The position numbers were made by a program, and so were the translations under genes. From an uncultured Bacillota bacterium (GTDB lineage Bacteria; Bacillota; Clostridia; Acetivibrionales; DTU013), in NCBI GenBank assembly GCA_942493145.1, contig OW818679.1:1103566-1167565 (forward strand): a stretch of 64,000 nt of DNA, in the 5' to 3' direction. Of the stretch, positions 31,046 through 48,098 are shown in pieces. Each line of letters begins with the position of its first letter. Position 1 is the first letter of the stretch. The notes below the pieces were generated by a model that saw only the letters and a program-made list of their open reading frames with translations, did no database searches and was not told the origin of the DNA.

Positions 31046-31948
31046 GTGAATTTTAAACAGATAAACCTGCTTCAGATCAACTATTTTCTTGAGTTGGCAA
31101 AACACCTGAATTTTACAGAGGCAGCAAAGAGCCTGTATGTTTCACAGCCATCACTGAGCAAGCAGATAGCACTTTTTGAGAAGGAAATCGGAATACAGCT
31201 TTTTTTCAGGACAAAACGTTCCGTCCGCCTTACTCCTGCTGGTACCGTACTTCTCAAAGAATTGAGCGGGATAACCGCACATATTGAAAATGCTATAAAC
31301 AAATCAAAACAACCTAATCTTGGAGAAAACAGCACACTAACCATAGGCTTTCTGGAAGCGATGGATACAGGAACTTTTCTGCCCCGGCTTATTAAAGAGT
31401 TTACAGAGAAGTATCCTGGGGTCGATCTCAGCTTTGAAAGACACTCCTTCAAAGTGCTAAGAGAGAAGCTCATAACCGGGTCGCTGGATGTAATCTTTAC
31501 GATGTCTTTTGAAATTGACGATTCCATGGGGGTTCTTTCAGACATAGTTTATAAAACCAATTCGAGTATTGTCTTGTCATCATCCCATCCCAAGGCTGGA
31601 CTGGAGAAGCTATCCGTCGCTGATCTTGCTGACGAGGATTTCATATTCATATCAAGGGATGAGTCGCCAAGGGGGTTCGATTCCGAAGTGGGTCTATGTA
31701 TGAGGTACGGATTTACACCTAAAATTGTCAAGCAGGTACCAAATATTGAATCCATTCTGCTTTGTGTGGAATCGGGGCTTGGGGTGGCGCTTTTCGACTC
31801 AAGCGTGCGTTTATACAATAAGGACGCATTTAAATTATTTCAGGTTGATGATGATTTTATAGGCATTGCAATGGCATGGAAAAAGGAGAATCTTAATCCT
31901 GCTATCCCTCTTTTCTCAAACAGCATCCTTCAAAAAGTCGAAGAATAA
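31046..31948 (+). CDS. LysR family transcriptional regulator
   Basis: N-terminal wHTH INYFLELAKHLNFTEAAKSLYVSQPSLSKQIALFEKEIGIQLFFRTKRSVRLTPAG followed by a LysR substrate-binding domain. GTG start. Confidence 0.9.
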   Translation: MNFKQINLLQINYFLELAKHLNFTEAAKSLYVSQPSLSKQIALFEKEIGIQLFFRTKRSVRLTPAGTVLLKELSGITAHIENAINKSKQPNLGENSTLTIGFLEAMDTGTFLPRLIKEFTEKYPGVDLSFERHSFKVLREKLITGSLDVIFTMSFEIDDSMGVLSDIVYKTNSSIVLSSSHPKAGLEKLSVADLADEDFIFISRDESPRGFDSEVGLCMRYGFTPKIVKQVPNIESILLCVESGLGVALFDSSVRLYNKDAFKLFQVDDDFIGIAMAWKKENLNPAIPLFSNSILQKVEE

Positions 31949-32039: not shown

Positions 32040-33761
32040 CTATATTCGCACTTTGTACTTGGTATGAAGAAGCTTGTGCGACTTTTCTCCCAGTGGTTTT
32101 ATAAGGAAATCAGTGTATAGCTGTGTTATAGCGGGGTTTTCGTGGGACTTGCGGATCGGCATGTCGCTGTCCACTTGGTAAAGGGAGGATATACGCTTCT
32201 TCCTTACCTCATTGTTTGTCTGGTAGGGTTGGCCACCTCCACCGATGCAGCCTCCGGGGCAGCACATGACTTCTATGAAGGTTTTATCTGAAGTGCCGGA
32301 TTTGATGCTTTCCATGATCTTTTTAGCATTAGCCAGTCCATGGGCTACTGCCACATTGACCTGGGTACCGGCAAGATCCACCGAAGCTTCCTTAACGCCT
32401 TCCATCCCGCGAATATCTTCGAATTCCAGCTTCTCGAGTGTCTTTCCCGTTACAACCTCGTAAACGGTACGCAATGCGGCCTCCATAACACCTCCGGTTG
32501 CTCCGAATATGGCTGCTGCGCCGGTTGACATTCCCAGAGGGGCGTCAAATTCTTCATCAGGAAGTTCATTGAACTCTATTCCGTCGTGCTTCAGCATTCT
32601 TCCCAGTTCCCTGGTAGTAAGCACAACATCAACATCCCTGTATCCGCTGGAAGTCATCTCTTCACGTGCGGCCTCGAATTTTTTTGCCGTACAAGGCATT
32701 ATGGATACAACAAACACATTTTCAGGAGAGATTCCGCTTGTCTGCGGATAATAGGTCTTAGCCAAAGCCCCGAACATCTGCTGAGGGGATTTGCACGAGG
32801 ATACATGGGGGAGCAATTCGGGGTAGTAGTGTTCTATATACTTTATCCAACCCGGGCTGCAGGAGGTTATCATAGGAAGTACGCCACCGTTCTGTAGCCT
32901 GTGGAGTAACTCATTGCCTTCTTCTATTATTGTAAGATCTGCAGCGAAATCGGTATCGAAAACCTGGTTGAATCCCAAAGCGCGAAGTGCCGAAACAAGC
33001 TTGGCAGTGGATATCTCTCCGGAGGGAAGACCAAACTCTTCTGCTATGGAAACCCTTACTGAGGGCGCAACCTGTACGACCACATGCTTGTCAGGATTCT
33101 CCAGTGCTTCCCAAACAAGGCTGGTGTCATCCTTTTCGTGAATTGCTCCTGTGGGACAGACCAGTGCACATTGCCCACAAAGTACACATGCCACTTCTGA
33201 AAGCTTTTTACCATATTCGGGGGTCACACAGATATCCGTACTCCTGTTGTGGGAGTATAATATACCGACCTCCTGGGTATGATGGCAGGCTTCTGCACAG
33301 CGGCCGCACTTGATGCACTTGTTGGGGTTGCGTACCAGTGATGTTGTAGAGAGATCAAGAGGCTGGAAATTCTGCTGTTTTTCACCGTGGATGTCCCTTA
33401 CGTCGAATTTGGCTGCTATTCTTCTTAGCTCGCAATCACCGTTACGTATGCAGGTCAGGCATTCCTGGGGATGATCTGCGAAGATCAGTTCCAGTATGGT
33501 CCTGACGGTTTCCTTAACTTTCTGGGAATTTGTCCTTATTTTCATGCCTTCTGTGACGGGCGTGGAGCATGACGCCACAAGGTTTTTCATTCCTTCAACC
33601 TCTACGACACATACACGGCAATTAGCTTTAACCCTCTGGTCGGGGTGGTTGCATAATGTAGGTATATATCTCCCTTGACGTTTGGCAGCCTCAAGGATTG
33701 TTATTCCGGATTCTACGGCAACTTCTCTGCCGTTGAGTGTTATATTTACAGTTTCCATCAT
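32040..33761 (-). CDS. hydA: [FeFe]-hydrogenase catalytic subunit (group A, HydA of trimeric complex 1)
   Basis: N-terminal 2Fe-2S, His-ligated 4Fe-4S (HPQECLTCIRNGDCELR) and two ferredoxin clusters. H-domain motifs ITSCSPGW, MPCTAKKFE, EVMCCPGGCIGGGGQP. ATGA overlap with hydB. Confidence 0.92.
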   Translation of the reverse strand: MMETVNITLNGREVAVESGITILEAAKRQGRYIPTLCNHPDQRVKANCRVCVVEVEGMKNLVASCSTPVTEGMKIRTNSQKVKETVRTILELIFADHPQECLTCIRNGDCELRRIAAKFDVRDIHGEKQQNFQPLDLSTTSLVRNPNKCIKCGRCAEACHHTQEVGILYSHNRSTDICVTPEYGKKLSEVACVLCGQCALVCPTGAIHEKDDTSLVWEALENPDKHVVVQVAPSVRVSIAEEFGLPSGEISTAKLVSALRALGFNQVFDTDFAADLTIIEEGNELLHRLQNGGVLPMITSCSPGWIKYIEHYYPELLPHVSSCKSPQQMFGALAKTYYPQTSGISPENVFVVSIMPCTAKKFEAAREEMTSSGYRDVDVVLTTRELGRMLKHDGIEFNELPDEEFDAPLGMSTGAAAIFGATGGVMEAALRTVYEVVTGKTLEKLEFEDIRGMEGVKEASVDLAGTQVNVAVAHGLANAKKIMESIKSGTSDKTFIEVMCCPGGCIGGGGQPYQTNNEVRKKRISSLYQVDSDMPIRKSHENPAITQLYTDFLIKPLGEKSHKLLHTKYKVRI

Positions 33762-35044
33762 GCAGTTTCCTCCTGAGATATTTCAGTATTGTTTTCCTTA
33801 CAGTAAAGCAGGTATTCATCACGATAGTACGAAAGCGATGAAATCAGGCTGTTACCGGCTGCCTGGCCTAATCCACAGAAGGATGCATTCTGCATCGCCT
33901 TGGTGTATCGTTCAAGATTATTGACGTCAATAACCGAGGCCTCTCCTGATAGCAGCTTGCCAAGTATGACATTGGCCTGTCGTAATCCTTCTCTGCAGGG
34001 CGTACATTTGCCACAGCTTTCATGAAGGAAGAATTTTATCCTGTTATGCACATTTGAAAGGATGGAGCGGGTATCATCCAGTACGAATATGGCGCCGGAA
34101 CCAATTGTAATACCGGCCCGGTTGCATGCGCCATATTCGAGTGGTGTATCAAGCATCTCAGGGGGTACTAAAACGCCGGATGCGCCGCCTATATTAACGG
34201 CTTTTATTTTGCGGCCGTTGGCTATACCGCCACCGTATTTCTCTATGATCTGGTTGAAGGTCATACCGAATGGCACTTCGCACAGACCTCTTTTGACTAC
34301 ATCTCCAGAAAGAGAAATAAGCTTTGTACCATGGCTGTCTGCTGTTCCGATAGAGCGGTACCATTCTGCGCCATTTTGTATAATTTTCGGTATGATAGTG
34401 AGTGTTTCAACGTTGTTTATGAGTGTCGGTTTATCCCAAAGGCCAGACTGGGTGGGATAAGGGGGCTTGACGCGCGGACGTCCCTTTTTGCCCTCAATTG
34501 AGGATATCAACGCAGTCTCTTCGCCGCACAAATAGCTGCCTGCACCTGAGAAAAGTTCAAGTTTAAAGCTGAAATCACTGCCCAGTATGGAATTTCCCAG
34601 CAAGCCGGCACTTTCTGCCGCTTTTATGCTGGCTTTAAGTATCCTTTGTGCTTCAGGATATTCATGTCTTACGTAGATGAACCCTCTTGATGCACCAGCC
34701 AGATAAGCTGCAATGGTAATGCCCTCAATCAGCTGAAAAGGCATGTTCGTCATTATGAACCTGTCTTTGAAGGTGCCCGGTTCACCTTCATCTGCATTGC
34801 AGATTACGAATCTCTGTTCTTCTGAGTTTGAGCGCACCATTTCAATCTTCTTAGCGGTTGGGAAAGCTGCTCCACCCCTGCCGCGAAGTTCTGCATCAGA
34901 TATGATCTTTACAGAATCGACAGCATCAGTTTCAAGAACCTTCTTTAGTGAAGAATAACCACCATGCTGTCTGTAGTGCTCAATACCTCTGTTTTCACAT
35001 TTGGATATGTTAAATACCAGCTTATCATCATGCAGTCTGTTCAT
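33758..35044 (-). CDS. hydB: NuoF-like flavoprotein subunit of hydrogenase 1 (short HydB: core only)
   Basis: GRGGAAFPT, CNADEGEPGTFKDR, GAGSYLCGEETALISSIEG, ESCGKCTPCREG. Lacks the N-terminal 2Fe-2S and C-terminal 2x[4Fe-4S] domains seen in 49635..51431. Start at MNRLHDD, with GGGAGGA 8 nt upstream. Confidence 0.88.
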   Translation of the reverse strand: MNRLHDDKLVFNISKCENRGIEHYRQHGGYSSLKKVLETDAVDSVKIISDAELRGRGGAAFPTAKKIEMVRSNSEEQRFVICNADEGEPGTFKDRFIMTNMPFQLIEGITIAAYLAGASRGFIYVRHEYPEAQRILKASIKAAESAGLLGNSILGSDFSFKLELFSGAGSYLCGEETALISSIEGKKGRPRVKPPYPTQSGLWDKPTLINNVETLTIIPKIIQNGAEWYRSIGTADSHGTKLISLSGDVVKRGLCEVPFGMTFNQIIEKYGGGIANGRKIKAVNIGGASGVLVPPEMLDTPLEYGACNRAGITIGSGAIFVLDDTRSILSNVHNRIKFFLHESCGKCTPCREGLRQANVILGKLLSGEASVIDVNNLERYTKAMQNASFCGLGQAAGNSLISSLSYYRDEYLLYCKENNTEISQEETA

Positions 35045-35513
35045 TACGGTGATCCTCCCTGAGCTCATTTATTATGGAAGATACATCCCCGGCGGTCAGG
35101 TATCCGTGTATTGTATCGTCGACCTTGATTGCGGGGGACATGTAACAGGCGCCGAGGCAATTAACACTTTCCAGTGTAAACAGTCCGTCAGCTGTAGTCT
35201 GTCCGATCGTTATGCCAAGCTCTTCTTCCAAAGCTTTCTGCACTTCGGCCTTACCGGCATTTTCACAAGGAGCATTGACGCATACCCTGATCAGATGTAT
35301 GCCCCTGGGCTCGAGTGATATTTCACTATAGTAGGAGGCTGTTGAATAGACTCTGCTGCGGGAGATGTTCATAACGTATGCAATTGCGTTTATATCTTCT
35401 TCACTCACATACCTCCTGGGATTATTGTCCTGAACATCCAACAGTACCTGCAAAAGTGGAACTTCATTTTTGTCGTATTGTGCAACTATATCCCGTATGG
35501 CTTTGGTTTTCAT
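35028..35513 (-). CDS. hydC: NuoE-like [2Fe-2S] subunit of hydrogenase 1 (HydC)
   Basis: Thioredoxin-like 2Fe-2S pattern C.NAPC....(31)...CLGAC, and first position in the operon. Confidence 0.88.
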   Translation of the reverse strand: MKTKAIRDIVAQYDKNEVPLLQVLLDVQDNNPRRYVSEEDINAIAYVMNISRSRVYSTASYYSEISLEPRGIHLIRVCVNAPCENAGKAEVQKALEEELGITIGQTTADGLFTLESVNCLGACYMSPAIKVDDTIHGYLTAGDVSSIINELREDHRNEQTA

Positions 35514-35904
35514 AAATGACCTCCTAGTTAAAATTGCTTCCAGGAAAATTCCTGGCTATTAATTATTAAATGAAGTATAAATTGCCTTTTATTGCAAGTC
35601 AAGAAAAGTTATTGAAATGACGAACAGTGTTGCAATCATCGCCAATATGCCGTCAAAGATGACGAATATCGTTAATTTGGGCAATTAATTCGTTTGTATA
35701 ATAACAAACTTTGATATAATTATTAACACACTCTGTTTTCAAAATTGCAGGAAGAACAGGCTCAATATTCATATTCTCATTTATAACGATATGGAATAAG
35801 TCTAATACATTATGTATATTTCACCTCTGAACGAATAATTGATACAATATGGTCGTGGACAAATTATTGCAATAAAACAATTATATTAGCATGGAGTTGA
35901 TTAT

Positions 35905-38019
35905 TTGAAAAAGATCAATCTGATAATAGACGACCAGAATGTTGAAACAATTGAGGGCAAATCATTGCTGGAGGCGGCGCTGGAGGCTGGTATCTATGTA
36001 CCCCACATATGCTCCCATGATGATCTTAATCCATCCGGCGCATGCCGGTTATGCGTCGTTGAGGTCGAAGGCAGAGAAGGAATCTCTGCCTCCTGTATGA
36101 CACAAGCAGAGACTGGCATGAATGTAAGGACCCGCACGCCACGTCTCAAAAAAATGCGCAGGCTGGCATTGGAATTGATGCTGACATCACATCCTTCAGA
36201 ATGCACCTCCTGCCCCAAATACCTTCAATGCGAGCTTCAGAACATGTTCCAGTATCTTGAGGTCACCGACGCCAGAATAAGGAAGCGCGCAGATCCTACA
36301 CCCCGGAATACTTCAAATCCACTGGTCCTGCACGACATGGGCCGCTGCATCCTGTGTGGAAGGTGTGTTCGTGCCTGTAACGAGCTTAGAGGGGTAGGAG
36401 CTATCACATTTGTAAAGAAGAACGGCATTGCGAAGGTAGGCGTAAAGGGAGGGACAACCCTTGCCGAGGCCGGATGCAAGTTCTGCGGGGCTTGTATTGA
36501 GGTATGCCCGACAGGTTCCATACTGGACCAGGAAGGCCTCATAAAGCCAGGTACATCACGGAAAGCAGCACTTGTGCCCTGCCGTGAAACGTGCCCGGCA
36601 GGAATTGATATACCACGTTATATCAGGTTCATACGTGAAGGCGATTATCCGGCCGCGGCGGCTGTTGTGAGGGAAAAGGCGCCATTACCGTCCATACTTG
36701 GACATATATGCAACCATCTTTGCGAACTTGAATGCCGCAGGGGTCAGATAAATGAAGCGGTTTCGATAAAACAGCTTAAGCGTTTTGCTGCAGCTCAGGA
36801 TGACGGCAGTTGGAAAAAGAACCTTGTGGAGCCTGCAAAAACAGGAAAAAGAGCGGCTGTAATCGGATCGGGTCCTGCCGGGCTTACGGCTGCATATTAT
36901 ATGGCACGGCTGGGACATGATGTGAATGTATTTGAAGAACAAGCCCACGCTGGTGGGATGATGAGGTATGGTATTCCTAAATACAGGCTCCCATGGGACG
37001 TACTTGACAAGGAAATCGGAGAGATAGTTGAAGCCGGTGTAGATATTAAGACGGGAATTAAGATAGCATCTGCCGGACTACTGCTCAATCAAGGTTACGA
37101 CGTCGTACTGGCAGCACCTGGTACACATCAGGGAGTGAAGCTGCCTTTGCCGGGCTCCGATCTGGAGGGTGTCCTTATAAATACAGATTTTCTTAGAAAG
37201 GCAAGCCAGGGAGAAAAGGTGGAAGTAGGAGACAGAGTTGTGGTGCTAGGCGGGGGCAGTGTCGCCTTCGACTGTGCAGGAACAGCCCGCCGTCTCGGAG
37301 CACGTGAAGTACATGTAGCATGCCTTGAAGCAAGGGAAGACATGAAGGCAAGTGCCGAAGAAATCCTTGAAGCCCTTGAAGAGGGGATTGTGGTACACCC
37401 GTCTCTCTCGTTTATTGAGATAAAAGGTGATAACGGCAAGGTTGCAGGAGTGCTCTGCAGCAAGGTCTGTACCTTCCATTTTGATGAAAGCGGCCGAGCC
37501 GTAGTGGAATGTGAAGATGATTCAGAGCATTTGCTTCCTGCTGATACAGTGATCTTTGCAGTTGGTCAGCGTCCTGACATTGATGCGGATTTTGGTCTTC
37601 CTCTGGCAAGAGGGAACAGGATAGAGGCATCCAGAGAAGATCTTTCCACTACGGTCACAGGTATTTTTGCAGCAGGAGATGCTGTCACTGGAACGTTATC
37701 CGTCATTGAAGCCATAGCAGCCGGAAGGAAAGCTGCTGTATCAATGGATAAATATCTCGGAGGCACGGGTGAGATTGACGAAAAGCTGGCACCGGTCACA
37801 GAACCTGAAAAATGGTTGGGCAGGGATGAAGGCTTTGCAGGGTCCGAGAGACGCAAAAGCACCTGCATTCCAGTTGATACAAGGATCGCCGGATTCGAGC
37901 GGGTAAATGATGGGTTCGACTGTGCAAATGCTGCCGGTGAAGCTGGACGGTGTCTGCAATGTGACCTCAGACTGGGGATAAAACGTCAGAAATTCTGGAG
38001 CGAGTATGCCAGCCGGTGA
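35905..38019 (+). CDS. Fusion of a NuoG/HydA-N-terminal Fe-S module with a GltD/NfnB-like NAD(P)H:FAD oxidoreductase
   Basis: 2Fe-2S (CSHDD..C..C), HPSECTSCPKYLQCELQ, CILCGRCVRAC, CKFCGACIEVCP. Then the GltD-type region CRETCPAGIDIPRYI..., AVIGSGPAGLTAAYY, VVVLGGGSVAFDCA, IFAAGDAV. TTG start 8 nt after GGAG. Confidence 0.85.
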   Translation: MKKINLIIDDQNVETIEGKSLLEAALEAGIYVPHICSHDDLNPSGACRLCVVEVEGREGISASCMTQAETGMNVRTRTPRLKKMRRLALELMLTSHPSECTSCPKYLQCELQNMFQYLEVTDARIRKRADPTPRNTSNPLVLHDMGRCILCGRCVRACNELRGVGAITFVKKNGIAKVGVKGGTTLAEAGCKFCGACIEVCPTGSILDQEGLIKPGTSRKAALVPCRETCPAGIDIPRYIRFIREGDYPAAAAVVREKAPLPSILGHICNHLCELECRRGQINEAVSIKQLKRFAAAQDDGSWKKNLVEPAKTGKRAAVIGSGPAGLTAAYYMARLGHDVNVFEEQAHAGGMMRYGIPKYRLPWDVLDKEIGEIVEAGVDIKTGIKIASAGLLLNQGYDVVLAAPGTHQGVKLPLPGSDLEGVLINTDFLRKASQGEKVEVGDRVVVLGGGSVAFDCAGTARRLGAREVHVACLEAREDMKASAEEILEALEEGIVVHPSLSFIEIKGDNGKVAGVLCSKVCTFHFDESGRAVVECEDDSEHLLPADTVIFAVGQRPDIDADFGLPLARGNRIEASREDLSTTVTGIFAAGDAVTGTLSVIEAIAAGRKAAVSMDKYLGGTGEIDEKLAPVTEPEKWLGRDEGFAGSERRKSTCIPVDTRIAGFERVNDGFDCANAAGEAGRCLQCDLRLGIKRQKFWSEYASR

Positions 38020-38046: not shown

Positions 38047-39603
38047 ATGTCACTCGAAATATTGAAGTCAAACTATGAAAGTATACTACTTCGTAATATT
38101 GGGAAGATAGCTAATGATGGAATAAAAGGCTACATTTCATCTGGAGGATATTCTGCTCTGAAGATGGTGCTTTCAATGACACCGGATGCGGTGTTGCCAA
38201 TCATCAGAGAAGCCGGACTCAGGAAAAGATCGGGAGAGGGAGCATTTATAGCCCCATTGATGACGAAGTGTCTTGAACAGACAGGTGCAGGCAAGTATTT
38301 TATATGTAACGGCACAGATGGCGATCCGGTATGTGAAATATCGGCATTCCTGCTGGAGAATGATCCCCATTCCGTATTGGAAGGAATCATTATCAGCGCA
38401 TATGCTACCGGGGCTGAGAAGGGGATATTATGCATAAACCCGGGAAAGGCTGTGGATATTGTTGAAAATGCACTAAAAGAGGCTGTTGCCGGAGGATTTA
38501 CCGGTGAAGGAATCCTTGGTACATCATACAGCTTTGAGTTGGAATTGAGGATCGTTGATAAAGCTTATATAAATAGTGAGGAATCGGCACTTCTGAATGG
38601 TCTGGAGGGTAAGACGCTCACGTCTGGAAGGACAAATCATATTACAGAAACAGGACAACCATTTCCGGGGTTGTTTGCATATGAGGGAAGTCCTGCTGTA
38701 GTCGTGGATGCCGAGGCTCTGGCGAACATACCGGTTATAATCCAAAGAGGAGCCGGTTGGTATAAAGGCATCGGCACTGAGAATTGTACAGGAACGAAGC
38801 TTTTCTGCATCAACGGAAGTGCTGCTTCCTGCGGGCTGGTCGAAGTGCCTTTTGGAACTACAATCAGAAGCATTATATATGATGTCTGTGGCGGAATTAA
38901 AGAAGGAAGCGAAATCAAAGCCTTGCTGGTTGGAGGCCCAATGGGAGGGTTTTTTACACCCGAAGGCCTCGATGTCATGCTGGATTTTGATCATCTTAAA
39001 GAAGCAGGTGCTGTTACAGGTACCGGTAGTATCGTTATATATGACACCGGCAGTTGCATAGTGAATACGGTGAAGGAGTGTATGTCCTTTTCCAGAATGG
39101 AATCCTGCGGCAAATGTGTTTTCTGCCGTGAAGGAACGTTCCAGCTACAGGAAATCCTCTCGGACATAACATCAGGAAAAAGCAGGACAAATGACCTTGA
39201 GATGCTGGCGGATCTATGTGAGGGAATGGCCGAAGGCTCGTTCTGCGCACAGGGAAAGGCTGCTCCAAACCCAGTAATTACATCACTCAAGCTATTCGGT
39301 GAGGAATATGAAGCGCATATGAAGCGCCGGAGATGTACTGCTATGGTTTGCAAGAAATATATCACCTATCATGTATTGCCGGATAAATGCACCGGTTGCG
39401 GGGATTGCATGGAGAAATGCCCGGAGGAGGCCATTGAAGGCGATGACGGCATGATACATGTCATTGACGCCGATTCCTGCACAAAATGCGGTCTGTGCCT
39501 CGAAATATGCAGCTCAGGTGCCAACGCCATAGTAAAAGCCGGACCTGTGAAGCCAATGACACCAAAGGAGCCTGTCAAAGTCGGCTCCTGGCGCAAGCGC
39601 TAA
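38047..39603 (+). CDS. NuoF-like protein with degenerate FMN/NADH motifs and a C-terminal 2x[4Fe-4S] ferredoxin domain
   Basis: The fold is collinear with NuoF/HydB. GRGGAGFPTG is replaced by RSGEGAFIAP, CNADEGEPG by CNGTDGDPV, and GAGAYICGEETAL by VDKAYINSEESAL. ESCGKCVFCREG and CTGCGDCMEKCP/CTKCGLCLEIC are retained. Confidence 0.8.
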   Translation: MSLEILKSNYESILLRNIGKIANDGIKGYISSGGYSALKMVLSMTPDAVLPIIREAGLRKRSGEGAFIAPLMTKCLEQTGAGKYFICNGTDGDPVCEISAFLLENDPHSVLEGIIISAYATGAEKGILCINPGKAVDIVENALKEAVAGGFTGEGILGTSYSFELELRIVDKAYINSEESALLNGLEGKTLTSGRTNHITETGQPFPGLFAYEGSPAVVVDAEALANIPVIIQRGAGWYKGIGTENCTGTKLFCINGSAASCGLVEVPFGTTIRSIIYDVCGGIKEGSEIKALLVGGPMGGFFTPEGLDVMLDFDHLKEAGAVTGTGSIVIYDTGSCIVNTVKECMSFSRMESCGKCVFCREGTFQLQEILSDITSGKSRTNDLEMLADLCEGMAEGSFCAQGKAAPNPVITSLKLFGEEYEAHMKRRRCTAMVCKKYITYHVLPDKCTGCGDCMEKCPEEAIEGDDGMIHVIDADSCTKCGLCLEICSSGANAIVKAGPVKPMTPKEPVKVGSWRKR

Positions 39604-39684: not shown

Positions 39685-41178
39685 ATGAAGAAGATGAACG
39701 CGGATGTAATTGTCGTAGCAGCAGGCCTGTCAGGTCTTGCAGCAGCCATTACCGCAGCTGAGAAAGGTGCCACTGTTATTGCATTTGAAAAGATGGGTAC
39801 TACAGGAGGAGCTGCAAACATGGGCATGGGCCCGCTCGGAGTAGGATCACGTTTCCAGAGGCGACGTTTCATAAGCATCACCCCAGGCGAAGCTTTCAGA
39901 AAGCATATGAACTTCACACACTTTCGCGGTGATCCAAGATTGGTCAGGGACTATTATTTCAAATCGGGTGAAACCATTGACTGGCTGGAGGACATGGGTG
40001 TAAACTTCCTTACCGTAACGAAGCTTTATCCGGTGCCGGAGGTCATGCGCCCATATGCTACCTCCGAGGAGACCTGGCATGTTGTCAGGCCGGCTGACGG
40101 AAGCGAGAACTTCGGTCCCAGGATGGCTGCGCCCATGATGAAGGCAATGACTGAAAAAGCAATTGACCTGGGTGTAGACATCCAACTCAACACGCCTGTC
40201 AAAAAGATCATTGTTGAAAATGGGCAGGTTGTTGGTGTCATTGCAGAAAGCAAGGACGGAGAAACAATTGAAGCAAGAGCAACAGGCGGAGTAATTCTGG
40301 CAACAGGCGGAGCCGGTGACAATCCTGAAATGATCAAGCAACTGACAGGTTACGAATGGGGCAAGGATCTTTACTCCTTCAGGATACCGGGAATGGATGG
40401 CGAAGGACTCAAGATGGCATGGGAAGCCGGGGCTCAAAAGACCAATGTGACAATGGAACTTATGTATACTGTTCCTTATAACCTGGCGAACCACAACAAT
40501 TTCCTGATTGACGGAGCCTTCCGTAATCCCTGCCTCTGGGTCAATGCCCTGGGTGAAAGGTTTATGAGTGAAGAATGTATCGGAAACAACACATTTGTCG
40601 GCAATGCCATAACCGAGCAGCCTAAGCGCTACATCTATTCCATATTCGACGCAAACCTTCTGAAACACTACAAGAAACACGGAGCAGACCTGGAATCATA
40701 TGTGCATCCTGTCGACATGTTCGATCATATAGAAGAAGCGATTGACGGTGCAATCAAAGACGGTTACCAGCATGTATTCGTTGCAGATACTATCGAAGAG
40801 CTGGCTCAGAAGCTTGAGATCAGTCCTGAAGTCCTTCAGAATACAGTCGATGAATACAACGGCATGTGCGACAAAGGCTTTGATGAACTTTTTGAAAAAG
40901 ACCACAGATTCCTGCAGCCTATCAAAAAGGGCAAATTCTATGCAGCCAGGTTTTACTCGGGAGCATACGGTACCCTTGGCGGAGTCAAGATCAATCACAA
41001 GACGGAAGTAATGAATGACAATTTTGAAGTTATTCCCGGATTATATGCAGTAGGACTTGAATCCTGCACGATTTATGGTGACAGCTATCCTTTCATACTT
41101 CCCGGAAATACCATGGGCTACTGCCTCAATTCAGGCCGTATTGGCGGGGAAAACGCTGCAAATCGTTCAGTTGAGTAA
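39685..41178 (+). CDS. FAD-dependent oxidoreductase of the fumarate-reductase/flavocytochrome-c flavoprotein family (FAD_binding_2)
   Basis: DVIVVAAGLSGLAAAITAAEKGATVIAFEK..TTGG at the N-terminus and GLYAVG...GNTMGYCLNSGRIGGENAA at the C-terminus. Start at MKKMNADV, with GAGGAGG 7 nt upstream. Confidence 0.8.
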   Translation: MKKMNADVIVVAAGLSGLAAAITAAEKGATVIAFEKMGTTGGAANMGMGPLGVGSRFQRRRFISITPGEAFRKHMNFTHFRGDPRLVRDYYFKSGETIDWLEDMGVNFLTVTKLYPVPEVMRPYATSEETWHVVRPADGSENFGPRMAAPMMKAMTEKAIDLGVDIQLNTPVKKIIVENGQVVGVIAESKDGETIEARATGGVILATGGAGDNPEMIKQLTGYEWGKDLYSFRIPGMDGEGLKMAWEAGAQKTNVTMELMYTVPYNLANHNNFLIDGAFRNPCLWVNALGERFMSEECIGNNTFVGNAITEQPKRYIYSIFDANLLKHYKKHGADLESYVHPVDMFDHIEEAIDGAIKDGYQHVFVADTIEELAQKLEISPEVLQNTVDEYNGMCDKGFDELFEKDHRFLQPIKKGKFYAARFYSGAYGTLGGVKINHKTEVMNDNFEVIPGLYAVGLESCTIYGDSYPFILPGNTMGYCLNSGRIGGENAANRSVE

Positions 41179-41282
41179 ATTGAGCAAGAAAAGAAATAGG
41201 GTAATGCAGCGATTAAATCAGGTAATACGGTGAATAAAAAGAAGCCGGATAATGGATGCCGGATGACGGAAGGACGATGAAT

Positions 41283-42104
41283 ATGAGCGAATTGATAAGG
41301 GGATTGACGCCCGAGGAGGCGAAGCTGCCTTATGCCAAATATTACTACAGGCCAATAGCACCACCGAATCCAAAACTGATTGAGATACTGAAACAGGGGC
41401 CTATGGATCCTGCGAAGGCACTGAAGCCCGAAAACATAAACGACTTGCTGAATCCAGGTTATCATGAAGTAGAGACCGGCTATTGCATTATGCCGGATGG
41501 AACAGGATATGCGGCTATCAACAACGTGTTCCCCGGATCTACCGTTGAAATGCACAACTGGTGGTTTGCCTGGCATGCGCTTGAAGACATCAGATACATG
41601 CTCTGGTTCAATAAGGGGCATTTTGGCATCCGTATCAGCGATGCCGACAGGGCGAAGATACTTGACCCCGATGTACCAATGGTAAAGAAGTACCAGGGTA
41701 TGCAGCATCATGTAGTAGAAGATGTGGGTGGTGGAGTGGAGGACATAGAAATCAATTTCCTGACACCGGAGGAAATGGGCTTTGATATGGAACGGTTCAA
41801 AGCCCCGGCTGTCGCAACTATAGTCGGAGCCAACGGATTTTCCCAGGCAAGGGCTGGAGGCCCAAAAGCCCCTGCAATAATGCTGCATTTCGCCCGTGAG
41901 ATTCCCGGCGGTATCGAATTCCGCACACGCTTCTGGATGGGCTGGCATATGATCAACGGAAAGCCGGTCAAACTGCTTCCGGACGGAATCAGGATACCAA
42001 TTCAGGCACCCATGGGCCTGGCCTTCCATAATGTGGAGGAGTACAGCAACCTGGCAGCATTTCTCCCTGAAATCTACAAGGAGATGCAGGGCAAGGTGTC
42101 GTAA
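41283..42104 (+). CDS. DAPG/phloretin hydrolase family (PhlG-like) C-C bond hydrolase
   Basis: Recognised from the family-like pattern ..YYRPIAPPNP.., VETGYCIMPDGTGY, WWFAWHALEDIRYMLW, and the C-terminal HNVEE (HxxxE). Recalled, not searched. Start is 41283 (GGAAGGA 8 nt upstream) or 41256. Confidence 0.6.
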   Translation: MSELIRGLTPEEAKLPYAKYYYRPIAPPNPKLIEILKQGPMDPAKALKPENINDLLNPGYHEVETGYCIMPDGTGYAAINNVFPGSTVEMHNWWFAWHALEDIRYMLWFNKGHFGIRISDADRAKILDPDVPMVKKYQGMQHHVVEDVGGGVEDIEINFLTPEEMGFDMERFKAPAVATIVGANGFSQARAGGPKAPAIMLHFAREIPGGIEFRTRFWMGWHMINGKPVKLLPDGIRIPIQAPMGLAFHNVEEYSNLAAFLPEIYKEMQGKVS

Positions 42105-42117: not shown

Positions 42118-42209
42118 GGCTCTACGTCAACAGTTGGGGTGGGGTACAAGTAAAAAAATATAGATGTATTTTCGGTGGATGATTTTATTGATCATCCACC
42201 GTTTATTTT
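42118..42209 (+). repeat. Solo ISL3 end: terminal inverted repeat plus subterminal terminator hairpin, with no IS body
   Basis: GGCTCTACGTCAACAGTTGGGGTGGGGTACAAGTAAAA matches 29236-29273 with 2 mismatches over the first 38 nt. It is followed by CGGTGGATGAT / ATCATCCACCG and TTTATTTT. No transposase or second IR follows. Confidence 0.8.
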
Positions 42210-42489
42210 GTGATTGTTATTTTATACAGTGTCATGAGGTCGGCGTTGTTCATTTTCAACAACTTTTATTGATGTATTTCTTTTTAAAACTCGTCAAGGT
42301 ATAATTAATAAATAAGTGAACTATATACCCTTGAATTAATGAAATTTAGCCACATTTACTATCTGATATATATGAAATGATATAAATGAAAGTTATTAAT
42401 CATTAACACTGTTGTTTAAACTGGGCTGCAGACCTTTCGGTTTATATAGAAACGGAAGCCAGGCAGAAAAAATCAATAGGAGGGTATTT

Positions 42490-44271: not shown

Positions 44272-44306
44272 AGCCACATGGTATAATCATACCGTGTGGC
44301 TTTTTC
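44272..44306 (+). terminator. Terminator after the solute-binding protein gene
   Basis: AGCCACATGGTAT / ATACCGTGTGGCT followed by TTTTT. Confidence 0.75.
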
Positions 44307-44349
44307 CATAAAGCCGAGTGTAATATCAAGTATAGGGGGCGACGCCGGA

Positions 44350-44703
44350 ATGAAGATTGAAGAGATAATCCGAATATTGGACGCAGAACTCCTGACATCA
44401 ACAGATACAACTTTTATAGATATATTTTCCGCTTGTGGTGCCGATCTGATGAGCGACGTAATGGCTTATGTCAAGGAAAACGTTTTGCTGCTGACGGGGT
44501 TGGTCAACCCACAGGTGATACGTACGGCTGAAATGATGGATATTAAGGCTGTTATGTTTGTAAGAGGCAAGACCCCGGGACAGGACATCATCGATCTTGC
44601 GGAAGAAAAAGGCATAATCATTATGAAAACAAAGAATCCGCTGTTTATTTCGTGCGGCAAGCTATACAAATCAGGGCTGACGGGCAGGGGTGTATGGGAT
44701 TGA
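44350..44703 (+). CDS. DRTGG domain protein
   Basis: LLLTGLVNPQVIRTAEMMDIKAVMFVRGK pattern. Small single-domain protein, first gene of the regulatory cluster. Confidence 0.75.
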   Translation: MKIEEIIRILDAELLTSTDTTFIDIFSACGADLMSDVMAYVKENVLLLTGLVNPQVIRTAEMMDIKAVMFVRGKTPGQDIIDLAEEKGIIIMKTKNPLFISCGKLYKSGLTGRGVWD

Positions 44704-45128
44704 GCGAAGATTCAATGAAACTCCAATATGATATACCGGCTGATGATTTTTCTGCTGCAGGAGAGGCATCCAGCAGTGTGAAGAAAGTCCTTGTCAAGTT
44801 GGGTGTAAGCCCTGAAGTCGTCAAAAAAGCCGCCATAGCAATGTATGAAGCGGAGATAAATGCCGTGATTCATGCAAATGGAGGATTTGCAGATGTGGAG
44901 ATAGCCCGTGATAAAATAAAAATATGCATCAGCGACAATGGACCAGGCATTCCTGATGTTGAGCAGGCCATGAAGGAAGGCTGGTCTACAGCTTCTGACA
45001 AGGTGCGCCAGCTCGGGTTCGGTGCTGGAATGGGCTTACCCAACATAAAGAGATACGCAGACAAACTTGATATAGATACGATTGTTGGAAAAGGAACAGC
45101 AGTTACCATAACCGTAAACCTTATGTAA
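44694..45128 (+). CDS. Anti-sigma-factor-type serine kinase (GHKL/HATPase_c, SpoIIAB/RsbW-like)
   Basis: AMYEAEINAVIHA (N box), DNGPGIPD (G1), GFGAGMGLPN (G2). The start is 44694 or 44715. Confidence 0.75.
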   Translation: MGLSEDSMKLQYDIPADDFSAAGEASSSVKKVLVKLGVSPEVVKKAAIAMYEAEINAVIHANGGFADVEIARDKIKICISDNGPGIPDVEQAMKEGWSTASDKVRQLGFGAGMGLPNIKRYADKLDIDTIVGKGTAVTITVNLM

Positions 45129-45149
45129 TCAGGGGAGGTTCAAAAGGCA

Positions 45150-46454
45150 GTGGAGAGCTATTTTCATTCGGTGACCCTGGATGAGGAAAAATGCCGGGGT
45201 TGTACAAACTGTATTAAAAGATGTCCGACCGAAGCAATAAGGGTGCGTAAGGGCAAGGCCAGGATAATCAACGAAAGGTGTATCGATTGTGGTGAATGCA
45301 TCAGGACGTGTCCCTACCATGCCAAAAAAGCCATCACCGATCCCTTTGACCTGATATATCAGTACAAATACAGAGTGGCCATACCTGCGCCATCTCTTTA
45401 TGGCCAGTTCAAGTCCGAGTTTACCAGGAGGCAGCTGCTTGAATCTTTGCGTGTGCTTGGCTTCAATGATGTGTTTGAAGTGGCAAGGGCAGCGGAATAT
45501 GTCACTGATGCGACAAAACGGCTCATGCAGAGGGAGGGTATAAAAAAACCGCTCATATCTTCAGCATGTCCTGCTGTTGTAAGGCTTATACAGGTTAACT
45601 TCCCAAACCTCATAGATAATCTTGTTAAACTGGAATCCCCGATGGAGACGGCCGCGAAGCTTGTAAGAAGGCGTATTTCACTCAAAGGCGATGTGCCGGA
45701 CGGCGATGTCGGAGTGTTCTTCATAACGCCATGTGCCGCCAAAGCAACAAGTGTCAAGGCACCATATGAGAATATACAATCATCTGTTAGTGGCGTAATA
45801 TCAATAAAGGATATTTATATTAAGATGATATCTGCACTGAATGCCGCAGGTGAGACCGATAATGAATCTCTCGCAGGGTTTGAGGGTATAAGATGGGCGA
45901 ATTCCGGCGGCGAAAGCGTTGCGCTTGGGACTGACAAGTTCCTGGCTGTCGATGGAATAAACAATGTGAATGCCATTCTTGAGGCAGTTGAAAATGACCA
46001 GCTTGAGGATGTTGAGTTCATAGAAGCGCTGGCATGTCCAGGAGGATGTATCGGCGGCCCACTTACCGTTGAGAATGTATATGTTGCAAAGAACAGACTA
46101 AACAAGCATGTAAATGATGCCAAAAATGAAGGCGGGACGGATGAGCGCCAGGAGCATCCTGATGAAGACCTTGTTTGGACTTCAGAACTTGAACACAAGC
46201 CGGTTATGAAGCTGGATGATGATTTCTCAGTAGCGATGAAGAAGCTTGAGGAACTTGAGATTATAAACAACCAGCTGCCGGGGCTTGACTGCGGAGCCTG
46301 CGGGGCACCCAGTTGCCGCGCTCTCGCGGAAGACATCGTAAGGGGCAATGCAAATGAAACCGATTGTATATTCAAGCTGAGGGAAAAGGTCAGGGACCTG
46401 GCTTCACAGATGATGGAACTTGAAGCGAAGATCCCGCCGGTCATGGAAAAGTAG
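45150..46454 (+). CDS. Sensory-type [FeFe]-hydrogenase-like protein (HydS/HfsB-like, no PAS domain)
   Basis: Two N-terminal ferredoxin clusters. The H-domain has altered motifs SSACPAV (versus TSCCP), TPCAAKATS, and ACPGGCIGGPL. A C-terminal CGACGAPSCRALAE Fe-S domain is present. Confidence 0.8.
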   Translation: MESYFHSVTLDEEKCRGCTNCIKRCPTEAIRVRKGKARIINERCIDCGECIRTCPYHAKKAITDPFDLIYQYKYRVAIPAPSLYGQFKSEFTRRQLLESLRVLGFNDVFEVARAAEYVTDATKRLMQREGIKKPLISSACPAVVRLIQVNFPNLIDNLVKLESPMETAAKLVRRRISLKGDVPDGDVGVFFITPCAAKATSVKAPYENIQSSVSGVISIKDIYIKMISALNAAGETDNESLAGFEGIRWANSGGESVALGTDKFLAVDGINNVNAILEAVENDQLEDVEFIEALACPGGCIGGPLTVENVYVAKNRLNKHVNDAKNEGGTDERQEHPDEDLVWTSELEHKPVMKLDDDFSVAMKKLEELEIINNQLPGLDCGACGAPSCRALAEDIVRGNANETDCIFKLREKVRDLASQMMELEAKIPPVMEK

Positions 46455-46462
46455 TAACGAGT

Positions 46463-46810
46463 ATGAATAAAGTAGGAATGAGTATGAATATTAAAGAGTT
46501 GGCAGAAAAAATCAATGCGGTTATCCTGACAGGACAGGCTGAAAACGAGGTCACCGGAATATATGCATGTGATCTCCTCAGCAGGGTCATGGCAAAGGCA
46601 ACCAAAGGGAACGCCTGGATAACAGTCCACACCCACCTCAATGTCGTAGCGGTCGCTGTCTTTGCAGAGCTTTCCTGCGTAGTGATCCCCGAAGGAATAG
46701 AGGTGGAAGAGGCTACGCTGAAAAGGGCGATAAATGAAGGCATTCCTATACTGACGACACAACTCCCGGCTTATGAAATCTGTGGGAGGTATTATGCAGT
46801 ACGCGGTTGA
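46463..46810 (+). CDS. DRTGG domain protein (second copy)
   Basis: ..ACDLLSRVMAKATKGNAWITVHTHLNVVAVAVFAELSCVVIPEG... The start may be 46463, 46478 or 46484. Confidence 0.7.
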   Translation: MNKVGMSMNIKELAEKINAVILTGQAENEVTGIYACDLLSRVMAKATKGNAWITVHTHLNVVAVAVFAELSCVVIPEGIEVEEATLKRAINEGIPILTTQLPAYEICGRYYAVRG

Positions 46811-47501
46811 CCTGCATATTCATTCGGTGCTCTCTCCCTGTTCCGATGATGGAATGACGCCGAACAACATCATCAATATGGCAATCCTAAAAAGACTTGA
46901 TTTTATTGCCGTTACAGACCATAATTCAACCGGCAACCTCAAGGCTGTCTTGGATTGTGCCCTTGGAAGGGATTTGATAGTTGTACCGGGTATCGAGGTA
47001 GAAACGGCTGAGGAAGTACATCTTGTTTGTCTTTTTCCATCACTGCATACCGCTATTGAAGCGGGAGATATCATTTCTTCAGCATTGCCGGAAATCAAAA
47101 ACCGTGAAGAAATATTCGGGAGACAACTGCTGATGGATGAGTATGACAATATAAAAGCCGAAGTCGGACAACTTCTTCTGACAGCAACCAGGCTTCCCCT
47201 TGAAGAAGTATTCCGTATAACAGTCAATGCCGGCGGAGTTGTCATCCCTGCCCATATCAACCGAAGCTCTTACAGCATCCTTTCAAACCTCGGAGCAATA
47301 CCTGGGGATCTTAACATTAAATACGTGGAAATAACCCCCAGAGACCCTTATGAAGCTCCAAACGGGTACATACCTATCATCTCATCCGACGCACACTCCC
47401 TTGGAGATATCCTTGAGAGGACATCCTTACTCGATTTGCCCCAAAAAAGCATAGAATGCCTTATCCAAAAGTTAAAAGGAAGAGTTTCTCCCATTGAATA
47501 A
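46794..47501 (+). CDS. PHP-domain phosphoesterase
   Basis: VDLHIHSVLSPCSDD...AVTDHNS...AHI.. metal-binding pattern. GGGAGG lies upstream of ATG 46794. The gene overlaps the upstream one. Confidence 0.8.
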   Translation: MQYAVDLHIHSVLSPCSDDGMTPNNIINMAILKRLDFIAVTDHNSTGNLKAVLDCALGRDLIVVPGIEVETAEEVHLVCLFPSLHTAIEAGDIISSALPEIKNREEIFGRQLLMDEYDNIKAEVGQLLLTATRLPLEEVFRITVNAGGVVIPAHINRSSYSILSNLGAIPGDLNIKYVEITPRDPYEAPNGYIPIISSDAHSLGDILERTSLLDLPQKSIECLIQKLKGRVSPIE

Positions 47502-47541
47502 TGGGTAAACTCTAATAAAATGAATTTTGAAAGGAGAAACC

Positions 47542-47931: not shown

Positions 47932-48040
47932 TAGCAACCTTTGTATACAATAAACTGCATTTCAAGTCAAAAGTACTTAATTGTAGCATAAAACAAATTT
48001 CTGGAAAAACAAAATTTCACAAAAAAATAAAAAATGGGCA

Positions 48041-48069
48041 TTGAATACACAAATCTTTCTTGTTATAAT
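48041..48069 (+). promoter_or_regulatory. Sigma-A-type promoter of the HydABC-2 operon
   Basis: TTGAAT (48041-48046), 17-nt spacer, TATAAT (48064-48069). Confidence 0.6.
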
Positions 48070-48080
48070 ATTAACGTACG

Positions 48081-48098
48081 TTGTTAATTGATTAACGT
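48081..48098 (+). promoter_or_regulatory. Rex-like operator
   Basis: TTGTTAATTGATTAACGT compared with the clostridial Rex consensus TTGTTAA-N4-TTAACAA (12 of 14 defined positions). It lies 12 nt downstream of the -10 element. Confidence 0.55.

Follow-up and report, generated by a model that had tools for sequence, protein, structure and literature searches.

A degenerate NuoF-type subunit as a possible iron-sulfur carrier between a NuoG-GltD fusion and an ene-reductase in an uncultured Bacillota bacterium

INTRODUCTION

NuoF-type subunits are seen as the invariant NADH and flavin mononucleotide (FMN) entry point of complex I, of NAD-linked hydrogenases and formate dehydrogenases, and of the bifurcating Bfu enzymes. 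In the Bfu classification paper, the BfuBC core is "absolutely conserved," and neither a type linked to FAD_binding_2 nor one devoid of flavin is listed. A conserved glycine-rich loop holds FMN in StnB, HydB, and Nqo1 (PMC10482914). In NfnB of C. saccharolyticus, loop 1 (150-GLRGRGGAGFP-160) carries F159, which stacks on the NADH adenine, and G156, which touches the ribose; K164 and E274 lie at the adenine ribose, and loop 2 holds F294, an adenine-stacking phenylalanine (PMC11829005). Here we describe a NuoF/HydB/NfnB homologue, termed F, that departs from this pattern. F is encoded in a stretch of 64,000 nucleotides (the window) from contig OW818679.1 of an uncultured Bacillota bacterium (assembly GCA_942493145.1). 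Its gene belongs to an operon of four: G, a NuoG-GltD fusion; F; R, a FAD_binding_2 reductase; and Phy, a phloretin-hydrolase homologue. The motifs that surround NADH and FMN are replaced in F, while the fold and the ligands of its iron-sulfur clusters are kept, and the clade to which it belongs contradicts the view of NuoF-type subunits as an invariant entry point. We lean toward reading F as a dead NuoF that is kept as an Fe-S wire or scaffold of a soluble three-subunit G-F-R reductase.

RESULTS AND DISCUSSION

Loss of the NADH and FMN pocket in F

The window holds three NuoF-type genes, which allows direct comparison of their motifs. HydB-1 (33758 to 35068, minus strand, 436 amino acids) reads GRGGAAFPTA / CNADEGEPGTF / GAGSYLCGEETAL, and HydB-2 (49635 to 51431, 598 amino acids) reads GRGGAGFPTG / CNADEGDPGAF / GAGAFVCGEETAL. 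The corresponding segments of F are RSGEGAFIAP (residues 61 to 70), CNGTDGDPVCE (87 to 97), and VDKAYINSEESAL (170 to 182). The open reading frame (ORF) coordinates and all of the strings quoted in an initial annotation of this DNA were recovered in the three proteins. A fourth signature that the annotation had not listed, NNVET, is also gone from F and reads VDAEA (residues 220 to 224). The insertion that had been noted after LEGK is real; alignment with HydB-type proteins shows seven residues, TNHITET (196 to 202), that fall in the region equivalent to NfnB loop 2. The features of the F gene are as follows.

38047..39603 (+), F subunit, 518 amino acids (Pfam, PDB, and AlphaFold2/Foldseek)
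38215..38262 (+), degenerate glycine-rich loop, residues 57 to 72, reading GLRKRSGEGAFIAPLM instead of GLRGRGGAGFPTGLKW (alignment to C. saccharolyticus NfnB)
38305..38337 (+), degenerate CNADEGDPGAF motif, residues 87 to 97, now CNGTDGDPVCE (alignment)
38554..38592 (+), degenerate GAGAFVCGEETAL motif, residues 170 to 182, now VDKAYINSEESAL, with both glutamates kept (alignment)
38623..38661 (+), disordered loop, residues 193 to 205, with the insertion TNHITET at 196 to 202 (model confidence and alignment)
38704..38718 (+), VDAEA in place of NNVET, residues 220 to 224 (alignment)
39100..39258 (+), four-helix-bundle domain with the N3/B1 [4Fe-4S] ligands C354, C357, C360, and C400 (Pfam NADH_4Fe-4S)
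39316..39351 (+), linker with H424, C430, and C435, candidate B2 zinc ligands together with C337 (60-sequence alignment)
39388..39513 (+), C-terminal 2x[4Fe-4S] ferredoxin domain (B3/B4), CTGCGDCMEKCP and CTKCGLCLEICS (Pfam Fer4 family)
39538..39600 (+), conserved C-terminal tail AGPVKPMTPKEPVKVGSWRKR (alignment of relatives)

NADH and FMN contact residues were taken from the structural papers on NfnABC (PMC11829005) and Stn (PMC10482914) and mapped onto F through a HMMER alignment. Five residues of C. saccharolyticus NfnB are replaced in or next to the glycine-rich loop (G153 by K60, G155 by S62, A157 by E64, F159 by A66, and K164 by L71), so that the loop reads KRSGEGA. The canonical GAG has become V170-D171-K172, C271-G272 has become N176-S177, and DEG of the second motif has become T90-D91-G92. 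Contacts that are kept include E273/E274 (E178/E179 in F) and F294 (F206), and Y174 is kept as well. Overall, F retains 18 of 37 canonical pocket positions, while intact NfnB/HydB-type proteins in the comparison set retain 33 to 37, mostly 36 or 37; the degeneracy is far beyond chance. The proposal that F had lost every nucleotide- and flavin-binding signature thus stands for the four motifs but goes too far for E178 and E179 of GEE(S/T)AL and for Y174 and F206.

Domain models reflect the same divergence. The Pfam Complex1_51K score is 69 bits for F, above the cut-off, compared with 152 bits for HydB-1; NADH_4Fe-4S scores 95 bits, also above the cut-off, and a Fer4 dicluster domain follows. 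The NCBIfam model nuoF_fam (TIGR01959) gives 307 bits, under its cut-off of 559.

Retention of the fold and the iron-sulfur clusters

The nearest PDB relatives of F are B subunits of bifurcating Bfu enzymes (phmmer E values of 1e-116 to 1e-109), namely C. saccharolyticus NfnB (9bov_B, 3e-116), the B subunit of a NiFe HydABCSL enzyme, and T. maritima HydB, together with NfnB of T. sibiricus and StnB of S. ovata. An AlphaFold2 (AF2) model built from 60 sequences had a predicted local distance difference test score (pLDDT) of 90.3 and a predicted template modeling (TM) score of 0.87, with pLDDT values below 50 only at residues 193 to 205, the stretch that holds the insertion. Foldseek superposed the model on C. 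saccharolyticus NfnB (9bp5_B) with a TM score of 0.89 and a root mean square deviation of 2.2 Å and also matched it to T. sibiricus NfnB, StnB, and HydB; TM scores for the NfnB and StnB matches were 0.86 to 0.89. The structural comparison that the initial annotation had called for therefore returned an intact fold with altered NADH and FMN contact residues.

All 12 cysteines of clusters B1 (C354, C357, C360, and C400) and B3/B4 (C448 to C458 and C478 to C488) are kept in F, and the N3/B1 ligand columns and the eight C-terminal ferredoxin cysteines are invariant across the alignments. This includes the ESCGKCVFCREG...C400 arrangement that had been pointed out at first. In the 60-sequence alignment C337, C430, and C435 are invariant and H424 is nearly so, which makes these four residues candidate ligands of the zinc site called B2 in Bfu enzymes. 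The earlier statement that F keeps all of its Fe-S sites is correct relative to plain NuoF but not relative to HydB-2: the N-terminal thioredoxin-like [2Fe-2S] domain (site B5) is absent, F starting about 110 residues later than HydB-2 in the alignment. Likewise, both of the C-terminal clusters described as CxxCxxCxxxCP are present, but the second motif, CTKCGLCLEICS, ends in CS rather than CP.

Beyond the ferredoxin domain, eight residues of the tail (K502, P503, T505, P506, P509, G513, S514, and W515) are invariant among the four closest relatives, and a tail of this type also occurs in loci L004, L005, L017, L023, and L070 of the set described below. Its consensus is K-P-x-T-P-x-x-P-(I/V)-P-V-G-(S/T)-W-(K/R), and similar proline-rich tails are found in Nfn-type B subunits of Dehalococcoidales. 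The pattern of conservation suggests that the tail may be a docking peptide for the 704-residue G rather than for R.

Relatives, gene linkage, and phylogeny

A word-indexed search returned three close relatives of F (51, 47, and 44% identity), followed by ordinary HydB-like proteins at about 43%. Their contigs carry G-F-R-MFS (L001), F-R-FMN_red (L003), and G-F in another setting (L002). The impression of a rare oddity, with three close relatives among 5.8 billion clusters, was rejected when an exhaustive search and a pattern scan yielded many diverged degenerate relatives. In the exhaustive search, 50 of the 149 nearest 50%-cluster representatives scored 25 or less of the 37 pocket positions, so degenerate NuoF-like proteins are diverse rather than a curiosity.

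The pattern scan of species-representative genomes gave 61 loci, in which ORFs were called and classified against the window proteins. Combinations of an F-like gene with G and one to several R genes, without NuoE, were found in Dehalococcoidia (Chloroflexota), Desulfobacterota, Spirochaetota, Holophaga foetida, and metagenome-assembled genomes (MAGs) of Actinomycetes; Bacillota with G-F-R and without NuoE include Sporomusa, Desulfosporosinus, and Lachnospiraceae. Gene orders were G-F-R, F-G-R, and R-G-F. Scoring F as degenerate at 29 or fewer of the 37 positions and as intact at 33 or more separated two kinds of loci. NuoE was adjacent in 1, G in 41, and R within 6 kb in 32 of the 44 loci with degenerate F; the corresponding counts for the 14 loci with intact F were 13, 11, and 2 (Fisher P = 6e-11 for NuoE and 3e-4 for R). 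In several Desulfobacterota and Dehalococcoidia loci (L019, L031, L036, L058, and L043), the only F-G pair is surrounded by two to four R paralogs. This arrangement suggests that a single F-G input module may serve several substrate-specific reductases.

A neighbor-joining (NJ) tree of 80 sequences, from which the 37 motif columns had been removed, placed all 39 degenerate F proteins and the transitional F of L018 in one clade (84 of 100 bootstraps) beside Nfn-type B subunits. The window F grouped with L001, L003, and L023 from Holophaga in 100 of 100 bootstraps. A phylogeny had been proposed at the outset to see whether degenerate forms make a clade that always neighbors GltD fusions; they form one clade, and G stands beside F in 41 of the 44 loci.

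Stepwise decay of the flavin module

Several relatives have lost less, or more, than the window F. Two loci are putatively transitional: in L018 (3429 to 5407), F keeps its FMN motifs (34 of 37 positions) and stands beside a NuoE-like ORF of 95 amino acids that comprises the N-terminal domain only, without the [2Fe-2S] domain; in L014 (9154 to 11506), F is partly degenerate and the NuoE-like ORF, of 138 amino acids, has an incomplete set of [2Fe-2S] cysteines. A sister group of about 550 amino acids from Dehalococcoidia and Desulfobacterota keeps GRGGAG(Y/F) and NNVET but reads CNAVDADP and VxxSLVSGEETAL at the other two motifs; its thioredoxin-like N-terminus is devoid of cysteine, and the C-terminal ferredoxin domain is absent. 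All four pocket motifs are lost in the clade of the window F.

Other forms of F are shortened, to 366 amino acids (L052 and L054), 362 to 367 (L066 and L068), 216 to 235 (L055 to L057), or 191 (L065). In L017 (7910 to 10930), G (residues 1 to 700) is fused through a linker of about 10 residues to the last 310 or so residues of F; this 1,006-residue protein, observed in a single MAG (Bacillota bacterium OH_HBrB_152), keeps the ubiquitin-like, B1, and B3/B4 parts of F and lacks the Rossmann-like flavin domain. Glycine stands in place of the third N3/B1 cysteine in several truncated or strongly degenerate F proteins (CGKCVFGYEG and CGRCSVGREG), encoded at L065 10613 to 11188, L066 10659 to 11762, L068 10627 to 11715, and L070 4506 to 5906. 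The B1 cluster in these forms may be a [3Fe-4S] cluster, may have a non-cysteine ligand, or may be lost.

Conservation within the protein has shifted as well. Mean pairwise identity among intact BfuB proteins is 0.56 in the Rossmann domain, 0.56 in the ubiquitin-like domain, 0.53 in the four-helix bundle, and 0.43 in the C-terminal domain; among degenerate proteins that have a C-terminal domain, the corresponding values are 0.33, 0.37, 0.38, and 0.46, and between the window F and its relative P0002 they are 0.44, 0.43, 0.62, and 0.73. In degenerate F, constraint no longer centers on the Rossmann domain but on the C-terminal part that bears the clusters. As judged from these forms, the clade appears to show an order of loss that runs from the NuoE cluster to NuoE itself, then the FMN site, and then the whole flavin domain.

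The operon and the G subunit

The four genes of the operon are separated by gaps of 27, about 81, and 77 nucleotides and have strong Shine-Dalgarno sites; that of F, AAGGAG, lies 9 nucleotides 5' of the start. One strong terminator follows Phy, and candidate promoters sit in the 391-nucleotide divergent intergenic region between hydC1 and G. The features of the operon outside F are as follows.

35820..35884 (+), candidate sigma-70-like promoters, three overlapping 9/12 matches, consensus-only and weak
35905..38019 (+), G subunit, 704 amino acids (Pfam and PDB matches)
39685..41178 (+), R subunit, 497 amino acids from the likely start at 39685 (Pfam FAD_binding_2, 1.7e-59)
41256..42104 (+), Phy, phloretin hydrolase/PhlG-family C-C hydrolase, 282 amino acids (Pfam DAPG_hydrolase, 3.9e-77)
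42173..42211 (+), intrinsic-terminator-like hairpin, a 12-bp stem and then a T-rich tail, closing the operon (sequence)

No NuoE gene is present in the operon, a point on which the initial annotation was silent. The nearest one, hydC1, was rejected as a NuoE partner of F; its reading frame overlaps that of hydB1 within the hydABC-1 operon, which is transcribed divergently.

The N-terminal part of G is of the NuoG/HydA type, with a [2Fe-2S] cluster, a His-ligated cluster, and 2x[4Fe-4S], and its C-terminal part is GltD/NfnB-like, with 2x[4Fe-4S], flavin adenine dinucleotide (FAD), and a nucleotide-binding Rossmann fold (Pfam Fer2_4, NADH-G_4Fe-4S_3, Fer4_Nqo3, Fer4_20, and Pyr_redox_2). Its best PDB matches are NfnA of C. 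saccharolyticus (9bov_A) and T. sibiricus (9n5u_A) and StnC (8oh5_C), and it is 48 to 49% identical to the G subunit of NuoE-NuoF-G loci in Dehalococcoidales. G retains intact glycine motifs for FAD and in the second Rossmann fold, together with every cluster motif, and its GltD-like domain is the presumed NAD(P)H entry point. The suggestion that nucleotide enters through the GltD module of the upstream gene agrees with every comparative test that was run, degenerate F being nearly always beside a GltD fusion.

After the second Rossmann strand, G reads ACLEAR, where the NfnA proteins of C. saccharolyticus and T. sibiricus read IYRRT. Intact Nfn-type loci encode 11 G proteins, every one of them with YRR (a NuoE-like gene adjoins 10 and is missing beside one), while G beside a degenerate F has CLE (CIE or CME in two), save two short variants without this stretch. 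The exchange of IYRRT for ACLE[S/A/C]R (window positions 37228 to 37344, G residues ~442 to 480; G proteins of L001 to L064) tracks the loss of NuoE and of the FMN site almost perfectly. Basic residues at this position of a Rossmann fold bind the 2'-phosphate of NADPH, and an acidic residue favors NADH. Since ACLEAR replaces IYRRT, the donor to G may be NADH rather than NADPH. Transhydrogenase activity between NADPH and NAD+/ferredoxin is not expected of G-F, because the NAD+ site in the B-type subunit appears to be missing.

R, Phy, and the flavonoid context

The R ORF opens at an ATG at 39664, but an ATG at 39685, with GAGGAGG 7 nucleotides upstream, is the likelier start and matches the 497-residue database copy. 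The best NCBIfam match is the vinyl phenol reductase VprA (342 bits, under the cut-off of 600), and the PDB matches are flavocytochrome c3 fumarate reductase and urocanate reductase. Judging from the Pfam and PDB matches, R has no nucleotide-binding input domain of its own; solved relatives get their electrons from attached heme or FMN domains. R is presumed to be a catalytic ene-reductase and the electron acceptor that the initial annotation overlooked. Phy, the last gene, has phloretin hydrolase 5xe5 as its best PDB match (8e-41).

Homologues of R at 60 to 76% identity are abundant. In contexts fetched from these homologues, G was adjacent in six of six and a degenerate or truncated F was present in five; the contig of the sixth (L069) ends inside G. 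A gene of the FMN_red type, coding for about 315 amino acids and found together with R-G-F in many Bacillota loci, lies directly upstream of R in L065 (6038 to 6982), L066 (6024 to 6983), L068 (6033 to 6980), and L069 (5038 to 5982) and a few genes away in L070 (128 to 1099); further genes of this type occur in L003 (3409 to 4359) and L005 (2614 to 3546). The one that was searched, from L068, has the flavone reductase FLR (7d38, E = 9e-30) as its sole solved relative. The paper that reported FLR states that its physiological electron donor or chain "remains to be explored," a gap that G-F might fill. No FLR homologue was found in the window.

In L066 and L068, Phy and the FLR homologue adjoin R-G-F, and FLR homologues and Phy are found on the flanks of R-G-F in, among others, Tissierella pigra, Lacrimispora algidixylanolytica, and Butyrivibrio. 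Genes for BKACE, thiolase, and CoA-transferase, of the phloroglucinol-degradation type, lie near the L. algidixylanolytica cluster, and a Sporomusa MAG has R-G-F with Phy, an FLR-like gene, several URO-D-type genes, MFS, and LysR. In the known pathway, FLR converts flavone to flavanone, Fcr/EnoR converts flavanone to dihydrochalcone, and Phy splits the latter into phloroglucinol and a phenylpropionate. On the basis of its neighbors, R probably fits the middle reductive step, from flavanone to dihydrochalcone.

A proposed electron path and its alternatives

We propose that F descends from an NfnB/HydB (BfuB) subunit that would have lost FMN and NADH binding and that has no NuoE-type partner, while retaining the fold, the N3/B1 [4Fe-4S] cluster, a putative zinc linker, and two C-terminal [4Fe-4S] clusters. 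In a G-F-R complex, NAD(P)H would be oxidized at the FAD of the GltD-like domain of G, and the Fe-S chain of G would hand the electrons singly to cluster N3/B1 in F. From B1, directly or through B3/B4, they would reach the FAD of R, which would reduce an activated C=C bond of a phenolic substrate. The product would probably be a dihydrochalcone, such as phloretin, formed from a flavanone or chalcone and then cleaved by Phy. The sequence comparisons show the homology, the lost motifs, the kept clusters, the gene linkage, the clade, and the deletions and fusion in relatives; from them we infer that F has no flavin, that G, F, and R assemble into a complex, in which order electrons move, and what the donor and the substrate are. 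The idea of a pseudo-NuoF repurposed as an Fe-S carrier or scaffold, put forward at first from the motifs, agrees with the kept fold and changed contacts, the shift in constraint, the deletions of the flavin domain and the fusion in relatives, and the clade.

Several points weigh against this proposal. E178, E179, Y174, F206, and most of the GxGS loop at 320 to 328 survive, so F might still bind a ligand weakly or bind a different one. The Stn enzyme feeds the C-terminal clusters of its B subunit solely through a NuoE-type [2Fe-2S] cluster (PMC10482914); as this cluster is absent here, continuity from B1 to B3/B4 is not guaranteed. The route to R would also not be identical in all members, because the ~550-residue sister group is without B3/B4. 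Geometry is thus the chief uncertainty of the wire model. The linkage statistics are biased by retrieval patterns that came from the F clade, and the loci are not phylogenetically independent; NJ can falsely group fast-evolving sequences (long-branch attraction); and the substrate assignment is based solely on neighboring genes.

The alternative that survives best, though we hold it to be unlikely, is that energy coupling, by electron bifurcation or confurcation, persists even though the Bfu flavobicluster has been taken apart. A ferredoxin would dock at B3/B4 of F, and exergonic C=C reduction at R would drive the reduction of ferredoxin by NAD(P)H, with the bifurcating site shifted to the GltD-type FAD (as in NfnSL) or to the FAD of R. 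Hosts of these loci are energy-limited anaerobes, including acetogens, Dehalococcoidia, and sulfate reducers, and electron transfer from NAD(P)H to enoates yields enough energy for ferredoxin coupling, by analogy to caffeyl-CoA reductase-Etf. B3/B4 is the best-conserved part of degenerate F, surviving in forms of 191 to 235 amino acids, and the same domain is the ferredoxin site of NfnABC and Stn (PMC11829005, PMC10482914). A GltD-type FAD does bifurcate in NfnSL/NfnAB (PMC10482914), but in Stn and NfnABC it terminates a linear chain and has been found, or argued, not to bifurcate (PMC10482914, PMC11829005). There is no sign of a second branch from the FAD of G, the window ORFs include no ferredoxin gene in the operon, and the ~550-residue sister group dispenses with B3/B4.

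Somewhat less plausible still is that G-F works alone as a ferredoxin:NAD(P)+ oxidoreductase, a nonbifurcating remnant of Nfn, with R and Phy merely co-regulated and R fed by another donor (flavodoxin, free reduced flavin, or an FLR-like protein). F does keep its ferredoxin-type domain and G its nucleotide site; loci L002, L020, and L021 have a degenerate F without R nearby, and FLR-like flavoproteins stand beside many R genes. However, R is a direct neighbor in various gene orders in six phyla, with multiple paralogous copies often surrounding one F-G pair, and contexts approached from the R side had G in all six cases and F in the five whose contigs did not end inside G. The operon of the window, moreover, contains neither an FLR homologue nor another donor gene.

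It is improbable that the pocket of F has been remodeled for another ligand, such as a different flavin, a nucleotide effector, or a phenolic substrate, to give a catalytic or regulatory role. Such a role would fit the confidently folded Rossmann-like and ubiquitin-like domains of the AF2 model, the kept GEE(S/T)AL, Y174, and F206, and the GRGGAG(Y/F) and NNVET of the sister group, but no part of F is less conserved within the clade than the Rossmann domain, its loops differ in every close relative with no replacement motif, and the flavin domain has been deleted from several lineages whose gene contexts are otherwise identical. Finally, a decaying, functionless pseudogene, to which the lost catalytic motifs and the disordered insertion might point, is effectively refuted by an intact frame of 518 codons with a strong Shine-Dalgarno site, a confident fold, conserved synteny, and 12 cluster cysteines and a C-terminal tail that are conserved across phyla.

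Neighboring genes

The hydABC-1 operon (hydC1-hydB1-hydA1, 32040 to 35513, minus strand) diverges from G-F-R-Phy. HydB-1 has intact FMN and NADH motifs and is without the N-terminal thioredoxin-like and C-terminal ferredoxin domains, an architecture that the Bfu classification paper links to nonbifurcating NADH-dependent hydrogenases; a link from H2 through NADH to the reductase is conceivable. A second hydrogenase locus (44296 to 53259) begins with a regulatory set of DRTGG (44296), HATPase_c (44652), a HydS-like protein with Fe_hyd_lg_C and "Putative Fe-S cluster" domains (45150 to 46454), DRTGG (46463), and PHP (46773). It continues with hydC2 (48201), HATPase_c (48702), a small thioredoxin-like 2Fe-2S protein (49231), hydB2 (49635), and hydA2 (51511). 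Upstream of the hydrogenase and reductase region lie an ISL3-family transposase (29588 to 30763, minus strand) and a LysR-type regulator (31046 to 31948, plus strand); LysR regulators likewise flank R-G-F in L005, L067, and L070.

Significance and comparison with known systems

The clade of F is an example of how parts of a bifurcating enzyme can be salvaged as simple wiring after the rest is lost, and the automatic annotation "NADH-quinone oxidoreductase subunit F" is misleading for proteins of this type. We think it fairly probable that G-F derives from an Nfn-Bfu enzyme that was taken apart and now serves ene-reductases as an input module. This use is apparently undescribed: no description of a flavin-less NuoF or of a NuoF/GltD/FAD_binding_2 complex was found in the papers searched on Bfu enzymes, Stn and NfnABC structures, the flavoproteome, or flavonoid catabolism. 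The three-subunit reductase family, as yet uncharacterized, would span Dehalococcoidia, sulfate reducers, acetogens, and gut Clostridia. The position of G-F-R between an FLR homologue and Phy in several genomes makes it a concrete candidate for the reductive middle step of anaerobic flavonoid degradation and for its electron supply. It also becomes testable where FLR-type enzymes obtain their electrons and which other enzymes reduce flavanones or chalcones. A bolder extension, which we regard as a long shot, is that G-F-R is an unrecognized and widespread Bfu-derived class of modular reductases in which G-F is a universal input module that feeds many FAD_binding_2 and possibly FLR-type enzymes, with the forms that have a C-terminal domain perhaps ferredoxin coupled through a bifurcating site that has moved off the NuoF flavin. 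On this reading, it would supply the missing electron-transfer chain of flavone and flavanone catabolism in gut Bacillota.

Among known systems, F is closest in sequence and fold to NfnB (C. saccharolyticus 9bov/9bp5 and T. sibiricus 9n5u) and to StnB of the Sporomusa ovata complex StnABC (8oh5). They share with it the order of Rossmann-like domain, ubiquitin-like domain, four-helix bundle with B1, linker, and 2x[4Fe-4S] C-terminal domain, and they too have a NuoG-GltD fusion as partner. Unlike them, F is devoid of both the FMN/NADH pocket and the N-terminal thioredoxin-like domain, and it has no partner of the NuoE type; because these are gone, the [B1-FMN-C1] bifurcation site cannot exist in a complex of F. 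G differs from the Nfn/Stn partner in having GltD at the C terminus instead of inserted and ACLE instead of YRR, and a FAD_binding_2 reductase as third subunit replaces NAD+ and ferredoxin as acceptor. According to the Stn paper, the FdhF-like domain of that enzyme is catalytically inactive and one of its cluster branches is a nonfunctional evolutionary remnant (PMC10482914). These relics sit in the G-type subunit and provide a precedent for a catalytic module that is kept for structure or electron transfer; in F the relic is in the NuoF-type subunit.

HydB of the bifurcating HydABC enzymes (T. maritima 7p5h, A. woodii 7q4v, and T. kivui 8a6t), of which HydB-2 of the window is an example, is homologous to residues 8 to 492 of F and has the same B1, B3, and B4 cysteines. 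It binds FMN and NADH and pairs with HydC and HydA, whereas F is without those sites, lies in another operon, and is 39% identical to HydB-2. With NuoF/Nqo1/NDUFV1, the 51-kDa subunit of complex I, F has the Complex1_51K and NADH_4Fe-4S domains and the N3 cluster in common; NuoF oxidizes NADH at FMN, while in F that site is gone, two extra clusters are present, and the protein is not in a membrane complex. Fcr/EnoR is an OYE-type Fe-S flavoenzyme that uses NADH directly, whereas R belongs to the FAD_binding_2 family and would rely on a separate input module. In terms of gut flavonoid degradation by FLR (7d38), Fcr/EnoR, and Phy, the operon contains Phy, and R would take the step from flavanone to dihydrochalcone.

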